Virus record (IMG/VR): IMGVR_UViG_3300025162_001855
From: a virus
Lineage: Duplodnaviria > Heunggongvirae > Uroviricota > Caudoviricetes
Direction: 5' to 3' (one strand)
Length of the DNA stretch: 64,000 nt
Shown: piece by piece, positions 3,506 to 43,595 of the stretch
Position numbering within the stretch: the stretch's first letter is position 1
How the letters are laid out: the number at the start of each line of letters is the position of its first letter
Program-made: the position numbers and the translations under genes
Notes under the pieces: model-generated
What the model was told of the DNA's origin: nothing
Database searches by the model: none
Seen by the model: only the letters and a program-made list of their open reading frames with translations

Positions 3506-3781
3506 TTATTTACCCGATAAATGGAAAAAGCCCTGCATCGAACCTTGCGTATCGTTCATCAGCTCGGACATGTTCACATGACTCAATCCCCACAAGGCAA
3601 AGATTAATCCGAGTAGCCAAGGAACAAACTTGGATATGTCCTTGCCATATGTCTCGGATATCTTTCGAACCATAAGGGAAATGAGATACCCGGCGCAAAA
3701 CGAAACCAGCACAACATTCCATAAATGCTGCGCCGAGATCAAGTCAAATATCTTCTGGGTTGGGTCGATAGTATGTGCCAT
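3506..3781 (-). CDS. small membrane protein
   Basis: ORF track; two hydrophobic helices. Confidence 0.35.
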   Translation of the reverse strand: MAHTIDPTQKIFDLISAQHLWNVVLVSFCAGYLISLMVRKISETYGKDISKFVPWLLGLIFALWGLSHVNMSELMNDTQGSMQGFFHLSGK

Positions 3782-3819
3782 ATAATCCTTTATGTGGACT
3801 ATACTTATTTATCCAAATT

Positions 3820-3895
3820 TGGTGCCCATTGTCGGATTCGAACTGACGACCTTTGACTTACGAAGTCACTGCTCTACCAACTGAGCTAAACGGGC
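3820..3895 (-). tRNA. tRNA-Thr(CGT)
   Basis: Acceptor GCCCGTT/AATGGGC, D-arm GCTC-AGTTGGTA-GAGC, anticodon loop TTCGTAA, T-loop TTCGAAT, encoded CCA. Confidence 0.6.
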
Positions 3896-3996
3896 ATAAG
3901 GCACATTCCACTTCCTGTCCGCGAGATAAACTCCATCCTAGGGCGGAATACTTAGTGCGTTGCCCTAGGTCGATGTTACGGCAGGTCTCTACCAAC

Positions 3997-4302
3997 CTAT
4001 TTCTTAAACCAATCCTCTGGTTTGTCTTCTTTGAACCACGAGTCAATTTGGTCTTTTGTTGGAGTTGATATTTCAACATCCTCAAAAGCCGGCTTCTCTA
4101 ATATAATGGTATCGATATAGTCACCAACATCACGTGGATGAAAATCGACTATGTCGTGCTCCATTGGAGAGAACTCAGTTACTTTGTTTCCGTATCGCTT
4201 GTCATATGGATTAAAGCCACCCCAAGTTGACTTGTGCGGAAGTCTCTTGGGGAATGCTTTTGGTTTTTCGGGCTTGCTAAACAACCTATCGAATAGTCCC
4301 AT
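3997..4302 (-). CDS. hypothetical protein
   Basis: ORF track; start moved to the internal Met so the gene sits between tRNA-Thr and tRNA-Gly. Confidence 0.35.
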   Translation of the reverse strand: MGLFDRLFSKPEKPKAFPKRLPHKSTWGGFNPYDKRYGNKVTEFSPMEHDIVDFHPRDVGDYIDTIILEKPAFEDVEISTPTKDQIDSWFKEDKPEDWFKK

Positions 4303-6975: not shown

Positions 6976-7503
6976 TTAATAAAAAAATGTCGATACAATA
7001 TGTATCACTCCGGCCATAAGCAACATAGCCAAGAACGGCAAATGAAACATACGCCAATGTTCAAACCATTGATCAAATTTAGCAAGATGTTTTCTGTTGT
7101 ATAGGTATCGACCAATAAGGCCGCTAATAACAGTCACCCACATACTGCACATGGCTATTCTTGCATTGCCCGCCCCAAGATGAAATCCGGTGTGATACAG
7201 GATAGCAATGGGACCAAATATACCAAGTAATGGATGCCACCAAAACCAATTGTACTCCGATCGAGGAAAGGCACGGGGCCAACGCTTCTTGGCCGAATAA
7301 AGGAATAGCAAGGCTAGCATACTTGCCCCGGTAATCCCGAGCGCATATCCTAGTCCATTTTTTGGAGTAATGTATTGGTCCGGATGATAAGCATAGCCGG
7401 CAATAATCAATGCCGCCGCAATTATACCTACCGCTCTTGGTCCGGCTTTACCCAATTCATAACTCCTCTTTAAAGCTGGTGCTGGTGTTTGGAATCGAAC
7501 CAA
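6976..7503 (-). CDS. integral membrane protein (multi-pass)
   Basis: ORF track; about five hydrophobic helices. Confidence 0.4.
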   Translation of the reverse strand: MVRFQTPAPALKRSYELGKAGPRAVGIIAAALIIAGYAYHPDQYITPKNGLGYALGITGASMLALLFLYSAKKRWPRAFPRSEYNWFWWHPLLGIFGPIAILYHTGFHLGAGNARIAMCSMWVTVISGLIGRYLYNRKHLAKFDQWFEHWRMFHLPFLAMLLMAGVIHIVSTFFY

Positions 7504-7552
7504 ATATCACTCGCTTATCAGGCGAGGCCCGCAGCCGTCTGGACCCACCAGC
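7478..7552 (-). tRNA. tRNA-Ile(GAT)
   Basis: Acceptor GCTGGTG/CACCAGC, anticodon arm CTCGC-CTGATAA-GCGAG, T-loop TTCGATT, encoded CCA. Confidence 0.6.
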
Positions 7553-8163
7553 ACTTGTATAAACTCTTTAGTCAATTGTTGTTCTTCCAATACAACAACA
7601 CGAACATGATTTTGTTGGCTGACATGTTCTATCTTTTCTTTATCCAATCTTGCCTTATACGAATTCTTAGGATCTAAATAGATATTGTAATCCACCAAAA
7701 GAAAATCCGGAAAATATTTCTTACCATCATACTTTAGGTGGCCAGGGCGAATCCATCGTATCCCCAATTCGTTTAATATTTTAGAGCACCGCAACTCATA
7801 TGAGGATTGCAAACACACCTGGTTACCAAATGAATCGCATACATTAAATTTTTTGCTTCTTCCGGCACGTTCTCTATAACCACCAAACCCTTGTGACTTG
7901 GCCGCAGCCGATAGTTTCGCTCGTCGGGCAGTCTCCATTACCGGATCTGTACACCGACCCATTTGCTTAGTGGTGTGTCTAAGAGATTCGGCATTCTTAG
8001 CCACTCGTTCATCTGTTTTAGCCGACAGTCCTTTATTCCACGCTGGGTGACCTAACGTGTGAGACACATAAATGCGGTCAGTATTCTTTGGGCATAACCG
8101 TTCATGGTTCCTGGTTGAGTTTGGATTTTTACATTCCTTACCACAATGTTTGCAAGTATTCAT
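7507..8163 (-). CDS. C2HC zinc-finger homing-type endonuclease (paralog 1 of 3)
   Basis: N-terminal CKHCGKECKNPNSTRNHERLC (C-x2-C-x12-H-x3-C); C-terminal nuclease-like block YFPDFLLVDYNIYLDPK; 3' end overlaps tRNA-Ile. Confidence 0.5.
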   Translation of the reverse strand: MNTCKHCGKECKNPNSTRNHERLCPKNTDRIYVSHTLGHPAWNKGLSAKTDERVAKNAESLRHTTKQMGRCTDPVMETARRAKLSAAAKSQGFGGYRERAGRSKKFNVCDSFGNQVCLQSSYELRCSKILNELGIRWIRPGHLKYDGKKYFPDFLLVDYNIYLDPKNSYKARLDKEKIEHVSQQNHVRVVVLEEQQLTKEFIQVLVGPDGCGPRLISE

Positions 8164-8224: not shown

Positions 8225-8881
8225 TCAAAATATCTGTGTAAACTCTGTCGGGGTGATAAGTCCCAAGTTTGTCTTGCGATCCTTACGCATCTCTCCAAAC
8301 TCAAAGAATGGATTGGTATGCGGAATAGTCCCATCACTTGGCATTCCATATGCCAAGATACCCACGCCATGGTCGGTATCAACTGTGACAATCTTCTTGT
8401 TGAGCAATGTGCGGAGATAGTAAATTGCCTTCCAGCAACTACCGTTGAGCGCACCAATTGCCTCCTTACCACCCTCGTTATAGAACCAATCCATGTCGTC
8501 ATTGGCCATAATCCAATCGGGCGGATTACAATCATGGAACACAATAAATCCATTATCGGACAAATGTGCCATCGAGTTGGCTGCATCCTTAAGTGTTTGG
8601 CCGGCTGTATGTAGTCCATCAATGAACACAACATCCCATTTATGGTCCACGGGAAAGCGAGTTTGGCCTTGCTCAAGGATCTTAAAGAATTCATCGGATG
8701 TCAGTTGGAATTCAACTGGATTACTCGGATTCAACAATCCCGGATCGACACCAACCTTGTGTGCCGCTGCAATATTATCAAAGCATTCGCGGGGATCATC
8801 AACACCAATCTCCAGATACTTACAACCCTGTGGAAAGTATTTTGAAATTAGGTAATTGAGAATGTTAATCCGGTTCATCAT
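8225..8881 (-). CDS. class I SAM-dependent methyltransferase (TylF/MycF-like)
   Basis: YLEIGV motif I-like and VVFIDGLH block in the translation. Confidence 0.5.
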   Translation of the reverse strand: MMNRINILNYLISKYFPQGCKYLEIGVDDPRECFDNIAAAHKVGVDPGLLNPSNPVEFQLTSDEFFKILEQGQTRFPVDHKWDVVFIDGLHTAGQTLKDAANSMAHLSDNGFIVFHDCNPPDWIMANDDMDWFYNEGGKEAIGALNGSCWKAIYYLRTLLNKKIVTVDTDHGVGILAYGMPSDGTIPHTNPFFEFGEMRKDRKTNLGLITPTEFTQIF

Positions 8882-9780: not shown

Positions 9781-9855
9781 TGGTGGGTCCGGAGAATTTC
9801 GAAATCTCGACTTGCCGCTTAAGAGGCGGCTACTCTGCCTCTGAGTTACGAACCC
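9781..9855 (-). tRNA. tRNA-Lys(CTT)
   Basis: Acceptor GGGTTCG/CGGACCC, anticodon arm GCCGC-CTCTTAA-GCGGC, encoded CCA. Confidence 0.55.
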
Positions 9856-10486
9856 AATTAATCTTATCACTATTAAATTTGTCTTGAAGATTATATTTTT
9901 CAACCACAGCCTTCAATCGACTGTATCCAGCTCCCCGAGTCTGCAATTTCAATAACCGTAATGCTCCCGATATTGATGTTGCCTGAAGTAGTGCATCGTA
10001 GTATCGTTGTTCGGTAATTTCTTTTTGCTTTTGTCGTTTATCTCGTTTTGGACGGATTCTACGTGCGCATCTGCCCACTAGCCAACCTTGTGGTTGTTCT
10101 CCGCATTTAAACTTTCCTGCCTTACTAGACACCGGATCATAATACCATGGCTTGCCAAAACTTCCATTTTTGTCACCAACCCGCTGTTTGGCTACTAGTT
10201 GATGCTTCTTCCTGATCCAACCATATATTTTGTTGTTCGATCGCTGTCCATTGTGCAACCCGATCATCTGTATAGCAGCCCAAACTAATCCGTTATGTTT
10301 AGGATACATTTTCATCAATAGCTGATGAGCAACATAGTGCTCTTCGGCAGTTAAGTTTACTAAGTTTTCTGGCAAATCTGTCCCACCGAGGCAACGTGGA
10401 ACAATATGGTGCCGTTCGATATAACCAGTTATCTTTCTACCTTTAGCCCGAGCTATTAGTAGTTCATAGTGTTGTGTATAGTTCAT
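9830..10486 (-). CDS. HNH homing-type endonuclease
   Basis: HNH block HHIVPRCLGGTDLPENLVNLTAEEHYVAH; 3' end overlaps tRNA-Lys(CTT). Confidence 0.6.
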   Translation of the reverse strand: MNYTQHYELLIARAKGRKITGYIERHHIVPRCLGGTDLPENLVNLTAEEHYVAHQLLMKMYPKHNGLVWAAIQMIGLHNGQRSNNKIYGWIRKKHQLVAKQRVGDKNGSFGKPWYYDPVSSKAGKFKCGEQPQGWLVGRCARRIRPKRDKRQKQKEITEQRYYDALLQATSISGALRLLKLQTRGAGYSRLKAVVEKYNLQDKFNSDKINWVRNSEAE

Positions 10487-11858: not shown

Positions 11859-11933
11859 TGGTGGGCCCACTAGGATTTGAACCTAGACTCGACGGTTTAT
11901 GAAACCGCTGCTTTGACCCTTAAGCTATAGGCC
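11859..11933 (-). tRNA. tRNA-Met(CAT), second CAT isoacceptor
   Basis: Acceptor GGGCCTA/TGGGCCC, anticodon arm GCGGT-TTCATAA-ACCGT, T-loop TTCAAAT, A73 and encoded CCA. Confidence 0.6.
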
Positions 11934-12548
11934 CGAAAATGTTCCTTTGCGAATCGCGTAAATATCTTGTTCGCGTATTATACGAAGTTTTCCAGGAAAA
12001 TGCAACCACTTGGCGCGATCTCTGTCGGTTTCATATCCCTTCACTTCAACGTACAGGTCCATAGATTCAATATAAAAATCTGGAAAGTATGTTCTGGTAC
12101 CATTCCATTCATATTCGAATCCGGTAGTTGCCCGATGTGGTTGTAATCCAACATTCTGGGCCCATCTATAAAATTCTAATTCCCACTTGCCCTGAAACTT
12201 TATACCATCTTCGATGATTTGTTTCGTTCTACCTCTATTAGAAGAAGTATACGCATCTGGATTGTTAGCAACCGCCAACTTCATCGATTCTGATGTTTTC
12301 TTTCTACTCTCCGCAGAACGTGCAAGTGTACCATTTTTTATTTTGGTAGCTAGTATCTTCTGTGTTGTTTCTTTTGCAACGACAGGCTTTGTCAATCCAT
12401 CGCGTGCCGCTTTTGTAAACTGGTTTGCACCTTTCTTACCGAGCATACCGTTTCGGTAGACTCTATTCTGGTTTTTGGGACAGCATCGTTCATGATTCTT
12501 GAGAGAATTTACGTTCTTACATAACCGATCACAGTATACACATTCCAT
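11925..12548 (-). CDS. C2HC zinc-finger plus PD-(D/E)xK homing-type endonuclease (paralog 2 of 3)
   Basis: N-terminal CVYCDRLCKNVNSLKNHERCC; C-terminal FPDFYIESMDLYVEVKG (D...EVK); 3' end overlaps tRNA-Met. Confidence 0.55.
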   Translation of the reverse strand: MECVYCDRLCKNVNSLKNHERCCPKNQNRVYRNGMLGKKGANQFTKAARDGLTKPVVAKETTQKILATKIKNGTLARSAESRKKTSESMKLAVANNPDAYTSSNRGRTKQIIEDGIKFQGKWELEFYRWAQNVGLQPHRATTGFEYEWNGTRTYFPDFYIESMDLYVEVKGYETDRDRAKWLHFPGKLRIIREQDIYAIRKGTFSGL

Positions 12549-16423: not shown

Positions 16424-16519
16424 CGATAAATTGGTCCTCGCCCACGGGAATGATCCGTGCCGTTGCAGCCAGTCCAGCCACTCTCGCAGGTTTATAAAAC
16501 CTACCCGCACACCAGTGCT
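16424..16519 (-). other. atypical tRNA-like element (about 96 nt)
   Basis: 7-bp terminal stem CCTCGTC/GGCGAGG followed by ACCA, T-arm-like CACGG-ATCATTC-CCGTG and hairpin TAGGT-TTTATAA-ACCTG, but a roughly 27-nt extra insert; not a canonical cloverleaf. Confidence 0.25.
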
Positions 16520-16527
16520 GACGAGGA

Positions 16528-17242: not shown

Positions 17243-17733
17243 AAAATTGATCGACGGGCGCAGCACGCCCAAGGCACTTTCAACAGCAGCCTTTCCATCT
17301 GTGAGCTTACGCTCGATCACTGAGCCGAAATTTAAATGGTAGCGGGGGGACGATTTGCACATCCGAACCTTTTCAGGACTGGATTATGAGCCCAGTTTCG
17401 TTGACTACTTGAATACCCCGCAACAAACATTTCTATGTGGCCGGTGGGGTATCTTGGTACTCTGTACCATGCCCATCCTCCGTTTACTTTCCTTACCACA
17501 TAAAATCAAAACTAGACGACCTTTTGCCGCTGGGATAAAACCAGCACCACTTATCGGGAAGGCGGCCGAACCTTATTTGGTGGAGTATGTCGGCATCGAA
17601 CCGACCTGCATATTCTCGGTGCAAGCGAGACGTCCACTCCAAGCAGACCCATACCCCAAATTTAGTAGGATTCTCTCACCCTTGTCAAGTCTGATTCGCC
17701 CGACTTTCTCTAGCCATCTTTTCAATGGCAATT

Positions 17734-19179: not shown

Positions 19180-19377
19180 ATAATAAGATGCTGATGGTGT
19201 TTACCTACGTTTCAGTCCCCGAGTTAAACACAACCCTCGGACTTACTCTGCTAGGAAGTAGGGCGGGTCTTAACCGCACATCAGCATTGTTTGGCGACCG
19301 ACAGGGGTAACGATCCCCTCTGAATATCTTGCGTGACAGGCAAGCGACCACTCCATGCAGTCCCGTCGGCCATAAAT

Positions 19378-19470: not shown

Positions 19471-20100
19471 CTACTCGTGAATGAATTGTTTCGCTATACC
19501 AATATAAGTCTTGGTATCTTTAAACATTTTCTTCCACTCTATTCTTAACACTTTCCAACCGGCTTCGGCTAGAACTTGGTCTTTTCTTTTATCGCGCGCC
19601 TTAACTTCGTCAAAGCGTTGATGCTGCTCGCCATCAATCTCTATGGCCAATTTTTTATCAGGCCACGCAAAGTCAATTGCATAAATGCCAACAGGATATT
19701 CCCTGCTGTAATTCTTATCTTCAAATTCGTTTTCGATAACTTGTATGAAGAATTTTTCTGGCCAGGATGGCTCGTTATTCCAACGACTTTTTCCTATGTT
19801 CCACGCAGTACCGTTATCGTGCCGGGCTTTCATCTTAGCAGCAAGTTTTGCTTTTGTTTCGAGAGTATGCCGTCGCTTAGATGATCTAGCTGATAACTTT
19901 TGTCGTGTCTCCTTCGATATTACCGGAGGAGGTAAACCCAACTTTTTCGCCTTTATGAATTGATTTGAATTTGATACTTTGTCTCGGTTGTTTTTCATCC
20001 ATGTAACTTGTTTATTGGGGTTGTTATTGCACAACCGCTCATGATTTAACAAGCTATTTTGGCTCTTACACATTCGATCACAAAACTTACAATTGGACAT
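19471..20100 (-). CDS. C2HC zinc-finger plus Vsr/DUF559-like homing-type endonuclease (paralog 3 of 3)
   Basis: N-terminal CKFCDRMCKSQNSLLNHERLC; C-terminal IDFAWPDKKLAIEIDGEQH...RDKRKDQVLAEAGWKVLRI. Confidence 0.6.
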   Translation of the reverse strand: MSNCKFCDRMCKSQNSLLNHERLCNNNPNKQVTWMKNNRDKVSNSNQFIKAKKLGLPPPVISKETRQKLSARSSKRRHTLETKAKLAAKMKARHDNGTAWNIGKSRWNNEPSWPEKFFIQVIENEFEDKNYSREYPVGIYAIDFAWPDKKLAIEIDGEQHQRFDEVKARDKRKDQVLAEAGWKVLRIEWKKMFKDTKTYIGIAKQFIHE

Positions 20101-21236
20101 TTGGTAGTGCTCCTGTCTATGTATTTAGCTGCTCTACCGCTGAGCTACTTACCAATAAACTCTAATAACGGTGCCACCCAGTCCGCCGTTTGCAGACCAT
20201 ATTCCGTTATTCTGACTGTGCCCTTTCTTTCGTCTACAGAGTTTTGTTAATGCACAGTCCCCAAACTCAATCTACCAAATGGATTATCGCCCTCTTCTGA
20301 CGGCCCGAGTTTACGGACTGGACGCAAGGCTTCAAAAGCCCCGACTTACACCACAAGAAAAAGTGACTGCGTCCCCACCTTATATATTTACGCAATCTAG
20401 TTGCACGCCGATAGAAAGTGTAGACGGTATGTTCAATGTCTGTGCAACCGCCACCGTAGTACACTAGGGATATATCGGAGCCCCCTCTCGGCGTATTTTC
20501 AACGCTGGTCCACGGCGCCGTTGATCAGGCGACGACGGTTAGCTATTTTTATGTGATAGTTTACCGACCAAATTCAAAATATAATACAAGGCCACCATCC
20601 TGTATTGTGATCGTACTCCTTAATATTGGTTGCTGCAACTCACCTCAGTACGATCACCAGTTGCCACGCCAGGGGTCTGGCTTGACTGAGCCCCCTCTCG
20701 GTAGAGACGCTATCCTCTCTACTAGACTTCCAAAAGTATTAGTGGGCCGACCATCCACCAATTGATGTTGTGTCCTATCGTTTGTACCAGGGCCTTGCTT
20801 ATAGATATGTGGTGTAATGCCACATGACTCACAACCTCCCGCCCACGCATACAGAGCATGTATCGTATAGCCCAACTACGGTTGACGATCATCAACAAGG
20901 ACTTAGTTTAACACCAAGCAACACCTTGCGGTATTCTTCACGCCTTTATAGTGGGCCTCTTGTCCCCACGCACATCGCCGATTCTCACGGCCGGCTCCTT
21001 TGTTCCATCTCAGGGCATACAAGTATGCGGGATGGAGGTTTGCTTCACTGAATTTGACGAACAAGGACTCGAACCTTGTATTAACCCCTTTGGAATCGAA
21101 CCGTTCGGTGCCGCCGCGCCGCCTCACCAGAGGAATCGTCAAAATTTGAATGTCCCAACGGTTTTGAACCGTCTACCGGGCCACAAGGACCCTGCTGTGA
21201 CCAACACCGAGCGTGGCCTACGCCCCGGGACAAAAT

Positions 21237-21314
21237 TGGAGCACCGAGTCAGATTTGAACTGACGATGGTTTCGTTTTGCAGACGAATGCGTTGGACCAC
21301 TCCGCCACCGGTGC
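21237..21314 (-). tRNA. tRNA-Cys(GCA)
   Basis: Acceptor GCACCGG/TCGGTGC, anticodon arm TTCGT-CTGCAAA-ACGAA, T-arm GTCAG-TTCAAAT-CTGAC, U73 and encoded CCA. Confidence 0.6.
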
Positions 21315-21450
21315 ATTATATAGTTGGGGCAATGACGGACCGGTGATTAGCCGGAATCCTTAGCTTATCAGGCTTAGTCATTGCCCTCATGTAGTGCGGC
21401 GGGTTTGGGTTTACCGCCAACCCCAAGTCATTTGTATGGACTTGGACATT

Positions 21451-21535
21451 TGGTGGGCCAGGTAGGGTTCGAACCTACACCCCGATGGGGACTTCCGCTT
21501 TACAGGCGGATGCACTTCCACTTATGCGTCTGACC
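21451..21535 (-). tRNA. tRNA-Tyr(GTA), class II
   Basis: Acceptor GGGTCAG/CTGGCCC, anticodon arm TCCGC-CTGTAAA-GCGGA, long variable arm, T-arm GTAGG-TTCGAAC-CCTAC, A73 and encoded CCA. Confidence 0.6.
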
Positions 21536-21984
21536 CAAATAAAACGTGCGTTTGAAAGGAACACTGACCTTTCTCGACGCACAGCGGCATAAAATAGGGG
21601 CGGAATATCGGATCCGCCAAACGATGAGAGTTGCACTCACAGGTAGGTTGATAGGAACTAGTATACCTCGTACCTTCTGCTTGAATTCACGCACCTTTTT
21701 TCGTGATACGTCTGGACAGCTTGCCAGCTTTGACCGCCACTTGCTCTCGCCCCCTGTTACCCGTTGCAACGGTTGGCAGCAGGTCCGAGTAGATCGGTAC
21801 GGGCTCGTTGTGACTCGCGATTGCTCAGCGTAGTCGAATGGGAAGGGATGACACGGGTTTTCACCGCAAACGGACAAGTCACTCCGTATTTTATTTCGCA
21901 TCCAGCAGAACTCGGGAACTACCCCTTTACCACCAGTGCGTATTTGTCGGACTCGATCACCGACCCATCATCCCATTGAAACAG

Positions 21985-22069
21985 TGGTGCCCGAAGAGGG
22001 ACTCGAACCCCCACACCTTTCGGCGCCTGATTTTGAGTCAGGTGTGACTACCAATTCCACCATTCGGGC
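21985..22069 (-). tRNA. tRNA-Leu(CAA), class II
   Basis: Acceptor GCCCGAA/TTCGGGC, anticodon arm CCTGA-CTCAAAA-TCAGG, 13-nt variable arm, T-arm GGGGG-TTCGAGT-CCCTC, A73 and encoded CCA. Confidence 0.6.
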
Positions 22070-22639
22070 AAAAATAAGATCCGCTTTTCGTTGCAGAGTT
22101 GCAACTTGGCCACTTTATGCGTGGCTACCTCATTGAGGCGGTGCGGATTAACCCAAGAATATTAGCGACGGGGCGCAGCCATTTGAAATTTGCTTTCTGT
22201 CGTTTAAGACTTGGAGCAGGCATGATGATGCCCGCAAGTCCCCCGTGCTCATCAAAATTGAATTTCACATTTGCAGCAATCGAAAGTTACTGCGAACCAC
22301 CGTCGTATATTTGGGTGGGGGCTGTGAAAGTGCCCAGTTGCCGTGCATTTTACTCCCCGCGTTTCCACCACGGGTTTCATCCGACGTCCGCCCATATGAG
22401 CTTTGTTTAGTGTGGCGCTCGCAGTCACGTTCCGCGTTACCACATAATGAAAAACCCTGGGATCTTTCGATGCCAGGGTCTAGTTTAACAGATTTGTACT
22501 GTTGGGACTAGACCCCTAGCTTATCTCCCATATTCACTGTTCTAGGTAGAATGGTAAACTGGGAGAACCCGAGTTGCGACCAATAGGTTGCCAAGGCACC
22601 TTTGGCTGCTAATTTACTCTTTTCTATATGCATTCTTCC

Positions 22640-22880
22640 TTTTTCCATTACGTTACTTACATTATATATAGTCTGCTTCGCGTTGTCAACCACTATTTTT
22701 TCGTTAGCAATCAACAACCTATCTACGGACTATTATACACACTTTTCATAGTGCTGTCAACAGATATTTATACTCACTCTGTCAACTACACTATTTATGA
22801 TCGAATTATAGCACCTTTTTGGATACTGTCAAGTTTATTTAGCCTGACAAAAAGTATAAATATCAATAACGTACCAGTGG
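22640..22880. repeat. AT-rich control region with four or five direct repeats of CTGTCAAC / TGTCAA-N-ATTT
   Basis: cgcgTTGTCAACcactattt, tgcTGTCAACagatattt, ctcTGTCAACtacactattt, actGTCAAGtttattt and CTGACAAaaagtataaat, immediately upstream of the plus-strand gene at 22891 and at the strand-switch point. Confidence 0.4.
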
Positions 22881-22890
22881 ACCCAAAATA

Positions 22891-24099
22891 ATGTTGTTGA
22901 ATGACCTATTTGAAGCAGCACCCAAAAAAGCAGAGTTGAGATCCGGCGAGCGGAGGGACCTTGCTATAAAGTTGAAATACACCACCGAACTAATACGTCG
23001 GTTGGAAAGATTGCGCAGCACATTGAGCAGTTTGAATATGACCCGGGATACTGGTGTTATTAAATTGGATCGACAGATTGAGGCCTTACGTGCAAGAATT
23101 GGTACCGAACAGAAGAAGTTGGCCCAGACAATCGACAAACATCGCTCTATTGTTCCAGCAAAGGTTCAACAGTTATTCGCCAAGATGAAAGTGGAGTGCA
23201 GTGACTTTATAAAGACATTACACCTCACTGGACCAAGTTACTATTTGTATCGAGGCATCAAGGGTTTTGATAAGCCGGCATTTGTTGCCCAGAGTCGAAG
23301 CGATCGAAAAGCTAAGGATAGCAGCCCGGCAGTGGCCAAAATGTTCGATAAGATGTTAAGCGAGCTTGGTTACAAGGCATTGCGTAGCAACAGTATCTTT
23401 GTTACTTCCAGCGACAGCTCGGCAGGTTCGTACGGTACGGTATACATGATCTTTCCGCGAAATGGATTCAACTATACCTACACCAAGCATCGCGATTTGA
23501 TCCTTGACAACAATTCGATGAGTGATGTTGTTGATAAAGACGAGATGCAGAAATTCCTTAAGGAGTTCCAAGACTGGGTTGCAACACCAGTTGGTCAGGA
23601 ACAATTAACATTGGCCAAGGCATATGAAGGATTTGGTACACACAGCAGTGATCCAAATTCAGGATCCCTTCTCCTTCTATACAACATTATGATGGCCGCT
23701 GCCACAGACAATGCCACCAAACTAATCTATAAATTGAACGACGCTGCATCTTATACCAGCCCTAGCATACTCAACTATGTCTTTAAAGGTATGCCGGACA
23801 AATTTAGAAAAGTGGATATGAGTAGTCTTATATCACAAAAGAGCTTCCAGCAATACTTTGACCCACATTCAACGGATCTAGCTCAGGCAATTATGGATCG
23901 TGTGGAGATTTATATTTCGGGTACATATTATGCTTTACGATCAGATGTGTTCTCCGATTGGGTCTACGATGGCTTGCTAGCCGATTCCGATCCACACAAG
24001 CCTTGGGGTCCAACATACGCAAAAGAAAATCCTCCGGATTGGGAACCGGAGGATAATAAGTTTAGCTCGTATGATCCCGATAAGGATGATCCGTTTTAA
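22891..24099 (+). CDS. large member (402 aa) of a five-copy paralogous family of unknown function
   Basis: Shares YRG...RSNSIFVTSSDS...GTVYMIFPRNGFNYTYT core with the four tandem ORFs at 60047-63320; about 200-aa coiled-coil-rich N-terminal extension; only long plus-strand gene in the region. Confidence 0.6.
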   Translation: MLLNDLFEAAPKKAELRSGERRDLAIKLKYTTELIRRLERLRSTLSSLNMTRDTGVIKLDRQIEALRARIGTEQKKLAQTIDKHRSIVPAKVQQLFAKMKVECSDFIKTLHLTGPSYYLYRGIKGFDKPAFVAQSRSDRKAKDSSPAVAKMFDKMLSELGYKALRSNSIFVTSSDSSAGSYGTVYMIFPRNGFNYTYTKHRDLILDNNSMSDVVDKDEMQKFLKEFQDWVATPVGQEQLTLAKAYEGFGTHSSDPNSGSLLLLYNIMMAAATDNATKLIYKLNDAASYTSPSILNYVFKGMPDKFRKVDMSSLISQKSFQQYFDPHSTDLAQAIMDRVEIYISGTYYALRSDVFSDWVYDGLLADSDPHKPWGPTYAKENPPDWEPEDNKFSSYDPDKDDPF

Positions 24100-25148
24100 T
24101 CCTTCTCTGCTAGAAGGTATTGGTTCGAGATCACCTTAAACGAGAAGTTTGGATCTTCAATGCATCGCCAAACTACACCCTCTCGTACTTGGGCGTGAAG
24201 GGATGGACCATCGGCTGCTATCAACATCTTGGGCAATGAATCCAACGGCCGGAATGTTCCAAGTGATGGCACAAGTCGGCATAGCGTTGTATCAAGTCCT
24301 TCATACCGCAACTTCTCATAGAACAACTCTACAGCTCGAGTAGTATAGAAACTTTGACTATCGATGTCGTAAATGTCAAAGATGAACAAGGTGTGACAAC
24401 CAAGCCCTTCTCGGTTACCTTGCACGCCGGGACCCATTAGCTCGCCTTGGATAGCAATGTTCAACCCAAACTTGGCCAGGCAAATAGCCAACTTTGATTC
24501 GGTGGCAGTCTTGATAAACGAGTTATCCTTGTTCTCTTCGGAGATAATCAATTCTAGATTGCGACTGCAAACACCAACATCGCCATCCTTGTAATACACA
24601 GTGCAGGAACTTCCATCGAGCTTAATCGATACCTTAAAGTCCTTGCGTGAAAACTTCTCCATGACCTTGTCGTAGATGTTTTGAATACGCTCCTGGTCGG
24701 TCTTTGGAATGAAGGATGGGAAGTTACCCTTCATCTTGCCGGCAAGTTGAGCCGGGATTGGTGCCTCCCACTTTTGAATACCCAAATGGTAAGCAAGATC
24801 CACACCCTCGGCAAACTTGAGCCACGGAGAACCAGTTACAGTCTCAACAATGTCTGTTGGCAATAGCAAACCCTGGCTCACTTGTCCGCGTAGCTTAATT
24901 GTACGGAGCCGGTTACCTTCGACATTGTTGTACACCTTTGGTGCCAAACCCTTTGAAAGGAACGGAGCCATTGTGTGCGGGACCCAAGAGTCAACCTCCA
25001 AATAGAGTACCATGTCGCCAACATTGTAACGACCAACTTGATCCACAACCCACCAACCATCTACGCGATATGCGCAAATCTTGTCGGCGTTTGGGATTGC
25101 AGCGACTTCGGCAATTTGCCGGATCGTTGCTAACTTACGCTCACTCAC
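24096..25148 (-). CDS. ATP-dependent polynucleotide (RNA/DNA) ligase, nucleotidyltransferase superfamily
   Basis: KLDGSS motif I (KxDG) in a 350-aa ORF with an N-terminal extension. Confidence 0.55.
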   Translation of the reverse strand: MSERKLATIRQIAEVAAIPNADKICAYRVDGWWVVDQVGRYNVGDMVLYLEVDSWVPHTMAPFLSKGLAPKVYNNVEGNRLRTIKLRGQVSQGLLLPTDIVETVTGSPWLKFAEGVDLAYHLGIQKWEAPIPAQLAGKMKGNFPSFIPKTDQERIQNIYDKVMEKFSRKDFKVSIKLDGSSCTVYYKDGDVGVCSRNLELIISEENKDNSFIKTATESKLAICLAKFGLNIAIQGELMGPGVQGNREGLGCHTLFIFDIYDIDSQSFYTTRAVELFYEKLRYEGLDTTLCRLVPSLGTFRPLDSLPKMLIAADGPSLHAQVREGVVWRCIEDPNFSFKVISNQYLLAEKD

Positions 25149-29077: not shown

Positions 29078-29152
29078 ATGATACGGGATTTGGATCCAAT
29101 TTGCAACATCTAAATTCCCAATGATTTCAACAACTTATAAGTCATTGATTTT
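29078..29152 (-). promoter_or_regulatory. conserved promoter cassette, copy 1
   Basis: TTGCAA, 17-nt spacer, TATCAT, preceded by the conserved upstream element AATCAATGACTTATAAGTTGTTGAAATCATTG. Confidence 0.5.
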
Positions 29153-30029
29153 CAAGGAAACTTCGTATCACTGTAATTCGTCCCTGTTCGGACAACTTTG
29201 CAAACTCGCCCTTCCAGGGTTCAATCCAATCTAACAGCGGGTAATATTCCTCGTCAATCGTCTTGCGAAAATCCGGAGTCTGTATACGTTCGAGGAACTT
29301 CTCTTCCTTCATGCGCCCCAGGAACTTGGTCACCAAATAATATGGCGACTTGATCTTGAGTGCAATGTCCTTGCCGTATGCAACAAACCCTTCGTGCTTG
29401 CAAGTCTTGGCCTCCTGCACTACATCGGAGAAGCGACATACCTTCCACTCGGGGCGCAGGTATCCTTGCGCCTTGGCCACAGCGTCTAGAATTTCTTCAC
29501 TGAGCATCTTGCCAGTAGAAATTACTCGGGCTCCGATCAAATACGCTCCTAAGTTTTCCTTGATGATGTGTGGATCCGATTCGTCGCAGATCTCAAACAA
29601 CCAAGTCGTCGGAAATCCAAAGTGATGGGCTGGTACGAAACACTTGAGGTGCTTCTCAACCATTACAGCAAAATCCGAATCCAATGAACCAGTTGTCGAA
29701 TAAATGATATCATCTCGGGTACGGTCCCAAGTAATGGCACCCATGAACCCATTTACCTTCCGTACAGCAATAACCATTTCGTCACGCGGGATATCAACAC
29801 CGCGCTCAAAGCGATTGTATATCTTCTGGAATGGACGCACTACTACGTTCCAATCCGCGTCCACAACCAATCCACGACATTCTTCAAGAAGGTCGTTCCA
29901 CAGTGCATCGTAGAATACCTTGCGGGTATACTTGATGACATACAATCCCGGATACTTTGTTGACTCGCGACGAGTTATCAACTTTGGGTTGGCATCAATA
30001 AATTCGCGTAACTGTGCGATGTCAATCAT
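29142..30029 (-). CDS. T4 RnlA-like RNA ligase 1
   Basis: N-terminal similarity to the recalled T4 Rnl1 sequence (LEECRGLVVD...RPFQKIYN versus ALECRGIMFE...RPMEKFFN); candidate nucleotidylation lysine in RKVNGF; directly upstream of and overlapping the kinase gene. Confidence 0.5.
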   Translation of the reverse strand: MIDIAQLREFIDANPKLITRRESTKYPGLYVIKYTRKVFYDALWNDLLEECRGLVVDADWNVVVRPFQKIYNRFERGVDIPRDEMVIAVRKVNGFMGAITWDRTRDDIIYSTTGSLDSDFAVMVEKHLKCFVPAHHFGFPTTWLFEICDESDPHIIKENLGAYLIGARVISTGKMLSEEILDAVAKAQGYLRPEWKVCRFSDVVQEAKTCKHEGFVAYGKDIALKIKSPYYLVTKFLGRMKEEKFLERIQTPDFRKTIDEEYYPLLDWIEPWKGEFAKLSEQGRITVIRSFLENQ

Positions 30030-30466
30030 GGATGATACTCGAAGTGAATGTTTTCATCTGGTGTGTACTTTGTTGCGATGGTCGAGTTATCCTCGAACCG
30101 ATCCCTCATCTGATCCAGCTTATCCTGTGGCACGTTGTGAACGTTGTCCCACTTGCCGTTGCACTGTATCACTCGAATATTATAGTCGTTACAGAAGGCC
30201 TTGAGAATGTAATTCTGCATCTCCCAGAGCTTAGTGAAGGTGTTGGAGACAACTACATCTTCTCCACGGTTAATGCATTGTGCCACGGTCTCAAAGCACC
30301 ACCGGTGCGCTGCGCCGAGCTGCTTCGGATCAAAGTGGTATTCGTTGCTCTTCATAAAATACATATCGGCTTCGACATGCTCTATTCCGGCAACATGTGC
30401 AATCTTGCGAGCAACCGTGCTCTTGCCCGAGCCCGGCAGTCCACGAATGATAAAAAGTGTCGGCAT
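30026..30466 (-). CDS. P-loop polynucleotide 5'-kinase-like protein (kinase domain only)
   Basis: Walker A GLPGSGKST in a 146-aa ORF adjacent to the RnlA-like gene; no HAD phosphatase domain. Confidence 0.5.
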   Translation of the reverse strand: MPTLFIIRGLPGSGKSTVARKIAHVAGIEHVEADMYFMKSNEYHFDPKQLGAAHRWCFETVAQCINRGEDVVVSNTFTKLWEMQNYILKAFCNDYNIRVIQCNGKWDNVHNVPQDKLDQMRDRFEDNSTIATKYTPDENIHFEYHP

Positions 30467-31004: not shown

Positions 31005-32015
31005 CTATTCTTCGAGGTATTGAATAAACTCCTTGGCGGCATTCTGCCAGGTGATATCCTTCACTGTACTATATACCTTCTCCCGCGATAAAGACATACA
31101 ATTTATGACAGAAGACAGTAGATTCGAGCCCGTGTACCCATTTACCCCGTTTTTGATTTGATCTATGGGTCCAGTTACGGGATATGCTGCAACTGGGGTT
31201 CCACAAGCCATAGCTTCCAAAATAACAATCCCATATGTATCTGTGCGGCTCGGGAATACAAAGACATCGGCTTGTCTATATTGTTCCGCTAGTAATTCTC
31301 CAAATTTGTAACCCACAAAATGCACGTCGGGATATTTCTTCTTTAGACGCTTTCTATCAGGCCCGTCACCAACCACCACCTTATTAATGTTGGGTAAGTA
31401 TATGCGGCAGAAGTCCTCAATGTTCTTCTCTTTACTCACTCGCCCGACATACAGCAACGTTTTGACTTTATTCTTTTGGTGTGGCTTTAATGGATCCGGC
31501 CGGAAGTGATCATCGTAGCCCTTACCCATAACTCTAGTGTTCCAATTCGGGTGTTCTCGAGCAGTGGAGTTTGACGAAACAATAACTGTTTTGGCACTAC
31601 GATGAAACCAATCAAAATACCAACTGGTATACTTTACTGGGATCTTAGTAATGTGTTCGATAAATTCCGGAAACTTGGTATGATACGCAGTGGTATACTT
31701 GATGTGCATTGCATCTAGCACTCGCTTGGCTTTATAACCAATTGGTCCTTCTGTAGCAATATGGAAGCGGCAAACAGGAGCCTCATCTAAATTGCGTTTG
31801 ATGATTTCCTTGATACGGTTGCGAGTAACAATCGACAGCCCAATTTCTTTATAGAATGGAAGTTTGATGGTCGTAAACATACTTGGTTCAATAATCTCGA
31901 CCTCGTGCCTCTCATGGTCGATATGTTGAATGGTGTTGATGTATGTTGTGACTACACCGTTTACTTGTGGATACCAAGCATCGGTGAATATTACGATTCG
32001 CTTTTTGTTAACCAA
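31005..32015 (-). CDS. GT4-family (group 1) glycosyltransferase
   Basis: GT-B C-terminal block VFVFPSRTDTYGIVILEAMACGTPV (E-x7-E-like) in a 336-aa ORF. Confidence 0.6.
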   Translation of the reverse strand: MVNKKRIVIFTDAWYPQVNGVVTTYINTIQHIDHERHEVEIIEPSMFTTIKLPFYKEIGLSIVTRNRIKEIIKRNLDEAPVCRFHIATEGPIGYKAKRVLDAMHIKYTTAYHTKFPEFIEHITKIPVKYTSWYFDWFHRSAKTVIVSSNSTAREHPNWNTRVMGKGYDDHFRPDPLKPHQKNKVKTLLYVGRVSKEKNIEDFCRIYLPNINKVVVGDGPDRKRLKKKYPDVHFVGYKFGELLAEQYRQADVFVFPSRTDTYGIVILEAMACGTPVAAYPVTGPIDQIKNGVNGYTGSNLLSSVINCMSLSREKVYSTVKDITWQNAAKEFIQYLEE

Positions 32016-32749
32016 TGTACAATCTCCCAGGTTCCATCATGATTCTCAACGAGTGCTGTGCAACTTTCTACCCAGTCACCGTCATTCATATATTCAACAC
32101 TACCAATAGTCTTGATCGTTGCGTGGTGGACATGTCCACAAATGATCCCATCTGCCTTTTTATTCTCGCAATATTCTACGATTAGCTCTTCGAAATCCGA
32201 TAGATAAGCGAGCGCCTCTTTGGTCTTATTTTTGAGATAGGCACTCAAGCTCCAGTGCTTCATTCCAAACCGTTGACGAATCTTGGCCAGGATCGAATTC
32301 AATCGCAATAATAGATCGTAGAAGAAATCGCCCACGCCATACAACCATTTGAGTTTGTTTTTCAGCACAGTGTCAAACAAGTCACCGTGAATTATAAGAT
32401 AGGTTTTTCCGTTTACTCCGCGGTAACGACAATAATCAACCATCTCAATGTTTCCAAAATGGATATCAAATGGGATCAATGTACGAAACAGGTCGTCATG
32501 ATTGCCCGGGAGGTAAACAACTTTGGTATTGCGTTTGGCCGCTGTTAATATTCTTCGCACCACGTTAGTGTGCGATTGTGGCCAATAGAAGCGGCGTTTG
32601 AGGCGCCATCCATCTACTATGTCACCGACCAAAAATAGATTTTCGGCTGTGTTATGTTTGAGGAAATCGCAAAGCTCATCGGCTTTACAGCCGCGTGAAC
32701 CTAAGTGTATGTCCGAAATAAATATTGCACGGTATTTCTTTTGGTCCAC
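31991..32749 (-). CDS. LpxH-like calcineurin-family metallophosphoesterase
   Basis: ISDIHLG, GDIVDGW, GNHDD and HGDLFD blocks matching the LpxH metallophosphoesterase pattern. Confidence 0.55.
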   Translation of the reverse strand: MDQKKYRAIFISDIHLGSRGCKADELCDFLKHNTAENLFLVGDIVDGWRLKRRFYWPQSHTNVVRRILTAAKRNTKVVYLPGNHDDLFRTLIPFDIHFGNIEMVDYCRYRGVNGKTYLIIHGDLFDTVLKNKLKWLYGVGDFFYDLLLRLNSILAKIRQRFGMKHWSLSAYLKNKTKEALAYLSDFEELIVEYCENKKADGIICGHVHHATIKTIGSVEYMNDGDWVESCTALVENHDGTWEIVHWLTKSES

Positions 32750-35563: not shown

Positions 35564-35762
35564 CTAACATGCCCAATTGGGCCAACCAATAAATCTTCTC
35601 GGCCTTTTCCTTTACATCAAAAAGAGATTGGCCCATGTCCTCGATTCGCCATGCGCCCCGGCTCGTCTTGTACTCTAGCAACCACCTGGTGGAAGCATAC
35701 AGTGACGGCATCGGTCGAATACGGAGACGATCTCCAACTCGTGTAATCTTCGGCTCGGGCAT
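35529..35762 (-). CDS. small hypothetical protein
   Basis: ORF track only. Confidence 0.3.
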   Translation of the reverse strand: MPEPKITRVGDRLRIRPMPSLYASTRWLLEYKTSRGAWRIEDMGQSLFDVKEKAEKIYWLAQLGMLDGKKPFQEIGE

Positions 35763-35993
35763 TTACTCGTCCACTCCAGCAGCATATTCATACTGCGCCC
35801 TGTACACCTTGTTGTCAAAGTCTTCGGCGTGCGTCCGCCCAAACGTTTGGTGAACTACACCATCTTCGTCAACAAGCATATCAAGGTACCCATGCCGTTC
35901 CCAATGGCAATTACCCGTAAATGGATACTGCCCGTTAATTCGTTGCTTCAATCTGTCCATATCGTACCTCCTATATACATAGTGTAGCATCAA
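35763..35993 (-). CDS. small hypothetical protein
   Basis: ORF track only. Confidence 0.3.
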   Translation of the reverse strand: MMLHYVYRRYDMDRLKQRINGQYPFTGNCHWERHGYLDMLVDEDGVVHQTFGRTHAEDFDNKVYRAQYEYAAGVDE

Positions 35994-36125
35994 AACAGAA
36001 AAAATGCAACTGCTAAGTCCGTTTATGAATCAACATGTTGCGTACTTTTATCCTCTAGTCAATTATATAGCAGTTGACCCCGTATCACAACCGTTTTTCA
36101 TAAATAATTGGACAGGAGATCCCAC

Positions 36126-41092: not shown

Positions 41093-41890
41093 ATCCTGTA
41101 TTTAGTATCTCACGCGCACCGAAGCTGACGTTCTACGGATGCAATATCGCAATGCTCAAGTGGAATGACCACATTGACTCCGTTGATTGCCTTGATGACA
41201 ATGTATTCGGTAAGGCTCCGACCAAGGAGGAAGGATACCACCTGAGATGGTGTGGAAAGGGTACGTGATCGTGTGGGCCATTTCTTGTCAAAGACGTGAT
41301 ACATCATTAGCTCCATGGGCTCAAAAATTGAAGGTGGGCAGCGTCGTAAACAAGAGCGCCGCGTGCAAACCCAACGCGCCATCGTCGCGGGCTAATCTGT
41401 CGAATGACACCCGACCCCCATTCGGGCCACCAACGGTCGTAAACTAGAGTTCCCGACTTTATCTTATTCATGCTACTCATCCTTTGGTAGTTCCGGCAAC
41501 GGCATCCAGTGTGTAATCATATTATGCAACGGATTACTCCGTGATAGCAAGGACCATTGCGGACCATCATCTAGAACCCAGTACCATTGGACATTCATTG
41601 TGCAAGGTGGGGTAAACGTTAGCACCAGTGAATCGTGTTCCGGTTGATAATCTTTCATGCTGACCCACTTGCTCATAGTTTCTTTCCTTCACGGAGTACG
41701 GCGTAAACCAACTCCTGTACATCACTCGGACCTTCTTCACCGTAATACAGCCAACCATCGTCGGCTATTGCTTGCAGTGCCGTTGTCAGCCTTGCAACCT
41801 TTGCGTCATAATCGCAGGCAAGGACATATTCGCCGCGTTCGGCCTCTTCCATACCACCCGTAGTACAATTATATCGCTTCGTATCCATCA

Positions 41891-42091
41891 TTATCTCCCA
41901 CTAGATCCTGGAGTAGTGAACCAACCCCGAATTTCTTTATTACAGCATTGACAGCGCATCTTTTGATCGGTGTACCCACCATCTCCAAATCCCATGAATT
42001 CCCAACGGTGAATCCCTATCCTGCAACGTAGTCTCATAGCCTTCATTTCCCGTACTCCTGTCCGGCAAGGGTGGTGCGCTTCAAATTCCAT
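41891..42091 (-). CDS. small zinc-ribbon protein
   Basis: CRTG...CRIG...CQCC cysteine pairs. Confidence 0.3.
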   Translation of the reverse strand: MEFEAHHPCRTGVREMKAMRLRCRIGIHRWEFMGFGDGGYTDQKMRCQCCNKEIRGWFTTPGSSGR

Positions 42092-42445
42092 TCGTCCACA
42101 CCAATGTAGATGCGTCCCGGCAGCGGCTCACGAAAGCACCACGGGTCGTAGCAGGAACATGCAACCGGCTCCAGATCAGAAGCCCGTACCGGGAACACCA
42201 TGCGATCCTCACAGCGGACGAGAATATTTGCGGGATTCTGAAATGCGTTCATTTTCCTCCCTCCATCTGCACCGTGCAGCGTGGGCATTCTAAAACCATT
42301 GTGGTGTTCAATTGAAGCCCGTAACGCTCCGGCACGGCGTGTAGCTTAGTTCCGCAACTGTTGCAATGCGTTGGCGTCGGTGGCGCTGTTGCGACCAGCC
42401 ACGAGACACCTCCTAGAAGCGCCACAATCAGGCAAAGTAATGCGA

Positions 42446-42820
42446 TCATGATTTCGGCCCCGCCTCGGGCGCTTCGTCACAGCCGCACGGCCCTACTGGC
42501 AGCGCCGGGGCGTTATGCGTCGCGCAGTCGGATGCGTGACCATCACCGAGCGCAGCGGCGGCGGGCGGCAGGGGGATCAGGAAGTCCGAAAGCTGTTCGT
42601 TGGCGTCCCTATTGTGTAGGCATACGTACTCCACGAAATCGTTATGCGCCTCTATCGCGGCGCGGAGGGCGTCGCGGTCGGCAACGGCCCGCATAGCCTC
42701 AAGGATCTGGCGGTCGCACTGGCGCGTGATTACCTCCAACTCCGCCCGCGCTTCGTCGAGTTGGGAGCGGAGAAGATTCACCTCTCGTACGAGAGCCTCT
42801 ACGAATTGGTCACTCATTAT
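42446..42820 (-). CDS. coiled-coil protein inside the GC-rich island
   Basis: Start at MSDQFVEALVREVNLLRSQLDEARAELEV; the gene is GC-rich. Confidence 0.35.
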   Translation of the reverse strand: MMSDQFVEALVREVNLLRSQLDEARAELEVITRQCDRQILEAMRAVADRDALRAAIEAHNDFVEYVCLHNRDANEQLSDFLIPLPPAAAALGDGHASDCATHNAPALPVGPCGCDEAPEAGPKS

Positions 42821-43230
42821 GCGGCCTCCATTACCTTCTTCGGCACAAAAACGTACAGTCCACCAAAGCAAGTCAAGTCACCAACGTAGGTATCGAGCTC
42901 TTCGGTGAACTGGGACTGGGCCGTAGTGATGCGGTACACTGGTGTCCGACCAGTCTGACGCAGTGCATCCTTAAAGGAGTCGCCAACAATGATGTACTCG
43001 ACATCCGGGAGCGCCTCACGGGCCAGAAAGGACTGCGCGTTGAAACGGCACACGGTCCGATTCTTCTTGTACCGACCAGCAGTGCCGGTCAACTTTGCCG
43101 GAATCCAAACGTCGGTATCGCCATCGGGCATCCAATTGTTTCCGAGCTTGTACGCAAAAGCAAATCGACCGATCTGCTTCCCATCCACGTGAATCGAATC
43201 CTTGCGCATGGTGTACTGGTAAATGCCCAT
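42817..43230 (-). CDS. hypothetical protein (138 aa after start correction)
   Basis: Start at MGIYQY with a GGAG ribosome-binding site; the upstream 50 codons of the ORF look non-coding. Confidence 0.4.
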   Translation of the reverse strand: MGIYQYTMRKDSIHVDGKQIGRFAFAYKLGNNWMPDGDTDVWIPAKLTGTAGRYKKNRTVCRFNAQSFLAREALPDVEYIIVGDSFKDALRQTGRTPVYRITTAQSQFTEELDTYVGDLTCFGGLYVFVPKKVMEAA

Positions 43231-43231
43231 C

Positions 43232-43585: not shown

Positions 43586-43595
43586 GGTGTTCTCC

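Follow-up and report, generated by a model that had tools for sequence, protein, structure and literature searches.

What fills the 2.8 kb, devoid of recognizable genes, with which a phage tRNA operon begins? The question arises from a 64,000-nucleotide (nt) stretch of DNA of a Caudoviricetes virus (IMG/VR record IMGVR_UViG_3300025162_001855), referred to below, at its full length, as the window. Positions 20101–22890 of the window, which are poor in open reading frames (ORFs), constitute the upstream end of a tRNA array and are flanked by a DUF559 homing-endonuclease gene (19471–20100, minus strand) and by a divergent plus-strand gene at 22891. An initial annotation, made from the sequence alone, had divided this stretch into three blocks (block 1, 20250–21230; block 2, 21540–21980; block 3, 22080–22500) and had offered large structured RNAs, introns, T4-type stable RNAs, or decayed tRNA arrays as candidates. 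The region is better described as a combination of a putative attenuator, an apparently new RNA, tRNAs, a partly conserved spacer, and decaying remnants. On balance, the stretch appears to be the non-coding, promoter-proximal head of a minus-strand tRNA operon, with several distinct parts rather than one object.

The structured RNA of block 3

Proteins identical to those of the window were found in many metagenomes on contigs of 247–333 kb, and the phage is an uncultured jumbo phage. Its population was clonal across samples, since three further copies of the locus (L021, L063, and L064) were 100% identical to the window. A more distant relative was provided by L022, a 3-kb Logan contig, in which the RNA ligase was 62% identical to that of the window and the order of the ligase and a convergent gene of just over 400 amino acids (aa) was kept. 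Similarity to the window at the DNA level was striking in the promoter region and at the beginning of block 3, as far as this contig reaches. A 20-mer invariant between the window and L022 was used to retrieve two additional loci from JGI metagenomes: L026, which belongs to the lineage of L022, and L025, which represents a third lineage and carries 13 tRNAs. The comparison of these sequences concerned the following features.

22070–22449, minus strand: conserved structured RNA of ~380 nt (alignment A2, RNAalifold, covariation, no Rfam hit)
22168–22246, minus strand: module M of this RNA (outer helix GGGG/CCCC, variable hairpin, invariant AGUCUUAAACGACAGA at 22196–22211), also found as a stand-alone element in IMG/VR phages
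22080–22147, minus strand: 3' four-way-junction (cloverleaf-shaped) domain, helices 16–19 of which carry compensatory changes
21985–22069, minus strand: tRNA-Leu(CAA), the first tRNA of the operon (ARAGORN, Rfam)

Between the terminator U-tract and the first tRNA, the window was 78% identical to L026 and 70% identical to L025. For the adjacent RNA ligase (62% protein identity), the identities at codon positions 1, 2, and 3 were 69, 75, and 42%, and for the adjacent 402-aa gene (39.5% protein identity) they were 51, 59, and 33%. Set against these values, the identity of 70–78% indicated that the RNA is more conserved than any codon position of its neighbors.

The pattern of substitutions pointed to a conserved fold. 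RNAalifold predicted 105 base pairs, 20 of which showed compensatory double changes, and 95.8% of the cells of the three-sequence alignment were paired on the predicted structure. Column shuffles gave only 7.8 ± 2.1 double-change pairs, and none of the 500 reached the observed number; when the pairing partners were slid by 1–3 columns, 0–3 such pairs were left. Pairing was also asymmetric, with 96.2% of cells on the minus strand versus 87.4% on the plus strand. The difference reflects G·U pairs (23 cells), which mark the minus strand as the RNA strand. The fold comprises a 5' hairpin, a long-range helix closing a multi-branch domain, module M, and the 3' four-way junction, and its invariant single-stranded runs include AUGGGCGGACGUCGGAUGAAA and GAGUAAAA...ACGGCAACU. 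In all three lineages, the RNA ends 1 nt before the first tRNA, which is tRNA-Leu(CAA) in the window and L026 and tRNA-Trp in L025.

Three points weigh against this interpretation. The full RNA was available in three lineages only; these sequences also served to derive the consensus structure; and the folding z-score of the RNA body was only −2.4 and was the same on both strands. In spite of this, block 3 is very probably a conserved structured RNA. A search of Rfam 15 with cmscan, run at the gathering threshold and, for sub-regions of 1–3 kb, at E ≤ 10, gave no match to the RNA in the window or in its relatives. Thus, the ~380-nt RNA appears to represent a new, apparently undescribed structured RNA family.

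Within what could be searched, the family is rare. Pattern scans of IMG/VR for four invariant parts found no full-length member, and the model of the 3' domain (R1) recovered only the copies of the three lineages in 0.64 Mb of related loci. A blastn search against 50,697 phage records yielded tRNA-Leu as the only match. No homologous RNA was found at the loci of RNA-ligase relatives in IMG/VR or in long metagenome contigs. The 402-aa neighboring gene had only distant homologs (at most 47% identity, partial alignments), and the two examined (P0006 and P0003) lacked synteny. Exact-pattern scans with segments of tRNA-Cys and tRNA-Tyr gave no matches, and four loci collected during the searches (L027, L028, L061, and L062) were discarded as chance matches.

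Module M had a wider distribution than the RNA that contains it. It consists, in order, of the GGGG/CCCC outer helix with the sequence GACU, the variable hairpin, and the 16-mer AGUCUUAAACGACAGA, and its outer helix covaries. A search with AGUCUUAAACGACAGA identified, in unrelated IMG/VR phages, three loci with a stand-alone module: in L037 (3670–3800, minus strand) and L045 it follows tRNA-Leu(UAA), and in L038 (8530–8610, minus strand) it lies after a structural gene with no tRNA nearby. No Rfam family matched module M, which looks like a portable small motif.

The leader and its predicted attenuator

The sequence between the divergent gene and the RNA of block 3 contains the elements listed below. 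The initial annotation had noted GC-rich hairpins near 22454 and 22480; both are present and are kept in the relatives, and they correspond to a predicted terminator and a predicted antiterminator. That annotation had overlooked the promoters and the leader ORF, together with the antiterminator/terminator logic behind these hairpins.

22805–22832, 22732–22760, and 22661–22689, minus strand: three tandem sigma-70 promoters facing the region (12/12 consensus positions, TTGACA and TATAAT separated by 16 or 17 nt)
22508–22648, minus strand: small leader ORF of 46 codons encoding MEKGRMHIEKSKLAAKGALATYWSQLGFSQFTILPRTVNMGDKLGV, open in L022/L026 (46 codons) and in L025 (44 codons)
22472–22520, minus strand: antiterminator hairpin GCUAGGGGUCUAGU...ACUAGACCCUGGC, with arms invariant in three lineages
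22450–22478, minus strand: intrinsic terminator CCCUGGCAUC-GAAA-GAUCCCAGGG followed by U5, sharing CCCUGGC with the antiterminator

The promoters are matches to the sigma-70 consensus with predicted start sites. L022 has promoter-like sites in the corresponding position, as does L025 on inspection by eye, and no other promoter-like site was found on the minus strand down to position 19000. From this we infer that transcription of the tRNA operon begins with this region, probably at the three tandem promoters.

The leader ORF is the only conserved ORF of the stretch and begins ~6 nt past the predicted start site of the third promoter. Its start (UAAUGG) and stop context (CUAGGGUCUAG) were the same in L022/L026 and L025, and YWSQ(L/P)G was the only motif common to the leader peptides of the window, L022/L026, and L025. 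The stop codon UAG (22508–22510) lies inside the 5' arm of the antiterminator, the 3' arm of which overlaps the 5' arm of the terminator. The inner stem of the antiterminator showed one compensatory change, and the helix was otherwise poorly kept.

Constrained folding showed how the two hairpins would exclude one another. The antiterminator formed, and the terminator did not, when the leader was free or a ribosome was placed 25 nt or more upstream. When a mask reached up to 14 nt past the stop codon, a clean terminator of −17.2 kcal/mol was obtained, and the terminator formed only with the 5' arm of the antiterminator blocked. The same switch was predicted in five lineages (the window, L026, L025, L037, and L051). 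In L037 and L051 it is built from different sequences and precedes their tRNA arrays, and unrelated short ORFs analogous to the leader end at the same hairpin.

Because these structures are kept in five phage lineages, the first ~200 nt of the transcript may be a ribosome-sensing attenuator. A ribosome at the stop codon would cover the 5' arm of the antiterminator, the terminator would form, and transcription would stop; if ribosomes lagged or were absent, the antiterminator would form and RNA polymerase would read into the structured RNA and the tRNAs. In the trp attenuator, a ribosome at the stop codon likewise masks an antiterminator arm and favors termination. The leader shares with attenuators of the trp, his, and pheL type a short ORF followed by antiterminator and terminator hairpins, which here are predicted on thermodynamic grounds to be mutually exclusive. 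Unlike them, it has no run of regulatory codons and no identified upstream "1:2" pause hairpin, and it precedes a non-coding RNA and tRNAs, whereas trp-type attenuators control biosynthetic enzymes. No description of such an attenuator ahead of a phage tRNA operon was found in the literature.

Several observations weaken the case for the attenuator. The leader ORF lacks a clear Shine-Dalgarno sequence, and the leader peptides show no run of regulatory codons. Between the window and L026, the third-position identity of the ORF (0.62) was not below that of positions 1 and 2; thus, its conservation could be due in part to constraint at the RNA level. L051 has a promoter-like site downstream of the terminator and ahead of its tRNAs, and the leader there may be a separate small unit. 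Taken together, these data give a role of the leader as a translation-sensing attenuator about an even chance. With its ORF and switch, the leader offers a testable model for the tuning of phage tRNA output to the translational state of the host.

Candidate roles of the RNA and rival explanations

Since the RNA ends 1 nt before tRNA-Leu, cleavage by RNase P at the 5' end of the tRNA would free it as a discrete molecule of ~380 nt. We tentatively suggest, at less than even confidence, that the RNA is a stable molecule that acts in trans and, like GOLLD and ROOL, is expressed along with the phage tRNAs. In the weakest step of the proposal, it would most likely bind a component of the translation or tRNA machinery. 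A more far-reaching proposal, speculative and rather unlikely, would make the RNA and its portable ~80-nt module (GGGGACU-hairpin-AGUCUUAAACGACAGA-CCCC) a new functional RNA class. In this proposal, the RNA might serve as a decoy for the tRNA and translation machinery or form an RNA-only assembly of the GOLLD or ROOL kind, and the module might be a small aptamer or ribozyme; the RNA would be gated, together with a complete tRNA set, by a leader-peptide attenuator that reads ribosome speed in the infected cell. If true, it would constitute a feedback loop for viral tRNA supply, of which no description was found.

The closest parallels were found among RNAs associated with tRNAs. GOLLD and ROOL are large multi-domain RNAs of phages and prophages, often encoded near tRNA islands and of unknown function; they are sometimes covalently linked to tRNAs, with the tRNAs located in the linker (bioRxiv 10.1101/2024.12.08.627333). 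The RNA of block 3 shares with them a niche, being phage-encoded and abutting the first tRNA of the arrays in three lineages, and the likeness is one of context only. It is ~380 nt long, compared with ~580–800 nt for GOLLD and ROOL, and is located at the head of the operon behind the putative attenuator. Homo-oligomeric assembly into nanocages is a further characteristic of GOLLD and ROOL. Neither covariance model gave a hit, also in the relatives, so the RNA is an analog of GOLLD and ROOL and not a member of either family. The "T4-type stable RNAs" of the initial annotation offer a fair likeness, again by context alone. The stable RNAs C and D of T4 (species 1 and 2) are non-tRNA molecules of ~120–140 nt, compared with ~380 nt here, that are co-transcribed and co-processed with the phage tRNAs, and their function is unknown.

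Large structured RNAs of phages that lie beside tRNA islands, such as GOLLD and ROOL, have long been a puzzle, and the number of known families is small. The notion that dedicated structured RNAs accompany the tRNA arrays of phages would gain support from a third, unrelated family in this niche. In this case the RNA is fused to the first tRNA of a complete set and, at ~380 nt, is small enough for structure probing and cryo-electron microscopy.

According to the best-surviving alternative, the RNA would act purely in cis, as a leader of the tRNA precursor, and would not be a stable trans-acting molecule. As such, it might be a processive-antitermination element or a platform for folding, stability, or processing that assists RNA polymerase and RNases with a tRNA-rich transcript of 22 kb. 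The position of the RNA directly between the attenuator and the first tRNA in three lineages, in spite of the change of the first tRNA, would be expected of such a leader, and nothing promoter-like was detected between the terminator and the RNA. However, known antitermination RNAs are much smaller than 380 nt (the put RNA is ~70 nt), and operon heads are not the only setting of module M, which follows a tRNA in L037 and a structural gene in L038. In addition, a multi-domain fold of 380 nt with invariant loops exceeds the needs of a processing platform. We therefore regard a purely cis-acting role as an unlikely reading that still carries real weight.

It is improbable that the whole 2.8 kb is non-functional and consists of decayed tRNAs and mobile-element remnants without ORFs. 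Such remnants do occur: two degenerate tRNAs and a truncated tRNA lie in block 1, part of which (20161–20457) diverges at the silent-site rate and carries a 187-nt indel. The folding z-scores of blocks 1 and 2 are near zero, and self-comparison of the window revealed no paralogs of the blocks. Nevertheless, 22070–22660 and 21853–21984 align at 70–78% and ~72%, respectively, with lineages that are saturated at silent sites, and compensatory changes were detected in these parts, which refutes the explanation for block 3 and the leader. Accordingly, the "decayed tRNA arrays" of the initial annotation apply to 21053–21233 and 20102–20153, with a neutrally evolving 3' part of block 1, and not to block 3. 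The "large structured RNA" applies to block 3 (22070–22449), which is conserved and covarying and has no Rfam match, and probably to the first ~130 nt of block 2.

It is very improbable that the blocks are self-splicing introns or belong to some other known class of large RNA (group I or II intron, tmRNA, RNase P RNA, GOLLD, or ROOL). The adjacent homing-endonuclease gene might suggest an intron, and ARAGORN at its 80% threshold reported a "permuted tmRNA" across block 3. In Rfam 15, none of these families gave a hit, even at E ≤ 10; the three flanking tRNAs were the only matches, and no other family was detected. The intron proposal of the initial annotation thus failed: tRNA-Cys, tRNA-Tyr, and tRNA-Leu are full-length and match positions 1–71 of the tRNA model without interruption, no host gene or ORF is split, and no ORF of the region matched a protein family, as the reverse transcriptase encoded by a group II intron would. 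At its default settings, ARAGORN predicted no tmRNA. The segment AGUCUUAAACGAC resembles the resume region of the E. coli tmRNA, and this resemblance was rejected on the basis of frame conservation and Rfam. The potential tag frame after AGUC-UUA-AAC-GAC is not conserved: in L025 it ends after four codons, and in L026 2-nt indels put it out of register. For RNase P RNA, the sequence after GAUGAAA was not, by eye, complementary to that after ACAGAA.

Finally, the region can hardly encode missed proteins, whether in small genes or in an alternative genetic code. The ORFs within 20101–22890 are short and overlap on both strands, some reaching 63–133 aa, and one frame in the RNA is open in both the window and L025. 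However, this sole shared frame contains an in-frame TAG in L026 that was created by a compensatory change, and the alignment of the RNA includes indels of 2 and 30 nt; both facts indicate that the RNA is not coding, its changes being compensatory at the RNA level. The earlier statement that the blocks lack credible ORFs was also borne out by public gene calls, which leave the stretch empty on copies of the same phage. Ten ORFs of the stretch had no match in PHROG, and tblastn of the three minus-strand frames, to which the pseudogene search was confined, against all 50,697 phage records gave no match. Recoding any single stop codon opened no long frame, and ARAGORN found no suppressor tRNA in the window.

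Blocks 1 and 2, the tRNA array, and neighboring genes

The remaining parts of the stretch are the following.

21853–21984, minus strand: conserved 5' domain of block 2, aligning to positions 1–137 of L026
21537–21852, minus strand: rest of block 2, with no excess folding energy (whole-block z −0.2)
21237–21536, minus strand: tRNA-Tyr (21451–21536), a 136-nt spacer (21315–21450), and tRNA-Cys (21237–21314) (ARAGORN, Rfam)
21148–21233 and 21053–21142, minus strand: two degenerate tRNA-like genes, "Thr-GGU" and "Arg-CCG," detected by ARAGORN at the 90 and 80% thresholds
20166–21052, minus strand: spacer of block 1 with two copies of GAGCCCCCTCTCGG (whole-block z −1.0) and a fast-evolving 3' part
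20102–20153, minus strand: internally deleted tRNA remnant, with 19 nt identical to tRNA-Lys(UUU) and the ACCA end kept

Alignment with the related phages revealed conservation in block 3, in the leader, and in the 5' part of block 2. The first ~132 nt of block 2 were ~72% identical to L026, beyond a 49-nt insertion, with a Smith-Waterman score of 63 against a null maximum of 24 and an nhmmer E-value of 1.7e-7. Most substitutions fall outside the predicted helices, and one compensatory pair was found. The L026 contig stops at the end of the aligned part, and no similarity to block 2 was detected in L025. Constraint therefore acts on the first part of block 2, a second conserved folded domain that is probably a structured RNA.

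Block 1 is mostly decaying, being composed of two degenerate tRNAs, a truncated tRNA beside the endonuclease gene, and neutral spacer. The tRNA-like pieces that had been left unresolved in the initial annotation are present, and ARAGORN recognized them at relaxed thresholds only. They directly follow tRNA-Cys with array-like spacing. Their variable arms are long, their stems contain mismatches, and position 37 is a pyrimidine; they were not listed by the Rfam tRNA search at E ≤ 10. An encoded CCA is missing from both, which end in ...ACA-UUCA and ...CAA-AUUC, and one of them reads UCA-AAUUU. We read 21053–21233 as degenerate tRNA genes. In the remnant at 20102–20153, the 5' half of a tRNA is joined directly to ACCA, and its trailer is identical to that after tRNA-Tyr. 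Like pseudo-tRNAs in arrays, these sequences retain acceptor and T-arm or 5'-half features and array-like spacing, and they might still serve a non-canonical function.

The evolution of block 1 was followed in the L059/L060 lineage, which is ~90% identical to the window and covers 20608–19073. Between 20161 and 20457, the identity to L059 was ~81%, with a 187-nt indel and several small ones. In the endonuclease gene, third codon positions differed by 19.5% and positions 1 and 2 by 2.9%, and the tRNAs were 97% identical. Since its divergence is close to that of third positions, 20161–20457 evolves at about the neutral rate. The 187 additional nt are located in L059 at 244–435, between window positions 20363 and 20360, and were either gained there or lost from the window. 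In contrast to this part, 20458–20608 was almost identical to L059, with a sharp boundary. This indicates either a recombination tract or strong constraint, and the latter possibility counts against a purely decaying block. L059 also lacks 14 further nt of the remnant at 20102–20153; its tRNA-Phe is 82% identical to that of the window, and the ~100-nt spacer at 19180–19290 is absent from it.

The repeated motif reported in block 1 is real: the 14-mer GAGCCCCCTCTCGG occurs exactly twice, at 20478–20491 and 20688–20701. No further copies were found in the 64 kb, even with three mismatches, and the sequences flanking the two copies showed no similarity (local alignment score of 28, versus 32 for the best of 200 shuffles). 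GAGCCCCCTCTCGG was consequently dropped as a family-wide motif. The GC enrichment noted earlier was only modest (0.49–0.51 in the blocks versus 0.458 ± 0.043 in the window). Likewise, of the "many GC-rich helices," only those in the block 3 body and the hairpins of the leader (local z of about −5) stood out, and folding energy was ordinary in blocks 1 and 2. Such mixing of constrained RNA with neutrally decaying tRNA remnants in a single ORF-poor block may be useful to recall in the annotation of jumbo phages.

Additional observations concerned the surroundings of these tRNAs. The 13 nt after the CCA of tRNA-Tyr (AAUGUCCAA..., 21442–21454) are the same as those at the junction of the truncated tRNA and the start codon of the DUF559 gene (20093–20105); the trailer of tRNA-Tyr looks like an unoccupied copy of the insertion site of the endonuclease. 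The spacer between tRNA-Tyr and tRNA-Cys contains a long-range stem, GGGCAAUGAC...GUCAUUGCCC, with local folding z-scores of −2.3 (minus strand) and −4.1 (plus strand).

At its default settings, ARAGORN predicted 42 tRNA genes in the window, all on the minus strand between 901 and 22069 and covering all 20 amino acids. The Rfam tRNA model confirmed 35 of them, and the other seven remained below its gathering score: Ser-CGA, Ser-GGA, Ile-GAU, Ile-UAU (95 nt), Met (86 nt), Ala (80 nt), and Asp (80 nt). Sub-threshold tRNAs are located at 1258–1439, 7477–7548, 16432–16526, 17337–17422, 17578–17657, and 19292–19371. Several class-I tRNAs are unusually long (e.g., Asn, 89 nt) and may be non-canonical or carry insertions. 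A CCA end is encoded in 41 of the 42 genes and is usually followed by AAUUU.

ORFs of ~207–218 aa lie between the tRNAs at 7507–8163, 8225–8881, 9830–10486, and 11925–12548. A weak match to HNH was found in one of these inter-tRNA ORFs and a methyltransferase domain in another, and one shares the C2H2 "jaz" zinc finger of the DUF559 endonuclease. Mobile genes of the endonuclease type appear to have colonized the array.

The genes of the phage include NAMPT, an NMNAT/Nudix protein, two RNA ligases, and a kinase. Genes for tRNA or RNA repair adjoin the array at 24096–25148, 29142–30029, 30026–30466, and 31991–32749 and encode an RNA ligase (PF09414), a T4 Rnl1-type ligase, an AAA_33 kinase, and a metallophosphatase. 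The PF09414 ligase is again located beside tRNA arrays in several IMG/VR relatives (L007 and L015–L018). One of them, L016, which was related through this RNA ligase, carries a tmRNA inside its tRNA array (3685–4125, ARAGORN default). Elsewhere in the window, two other ORF-poor stretches (35568–36107, 540 nt; 41383–42042, 660 nt) and a GC-rich zone at 42001–45000 (0.52–0.58 versus 0.458 in the window) might hold more non-coding elements.

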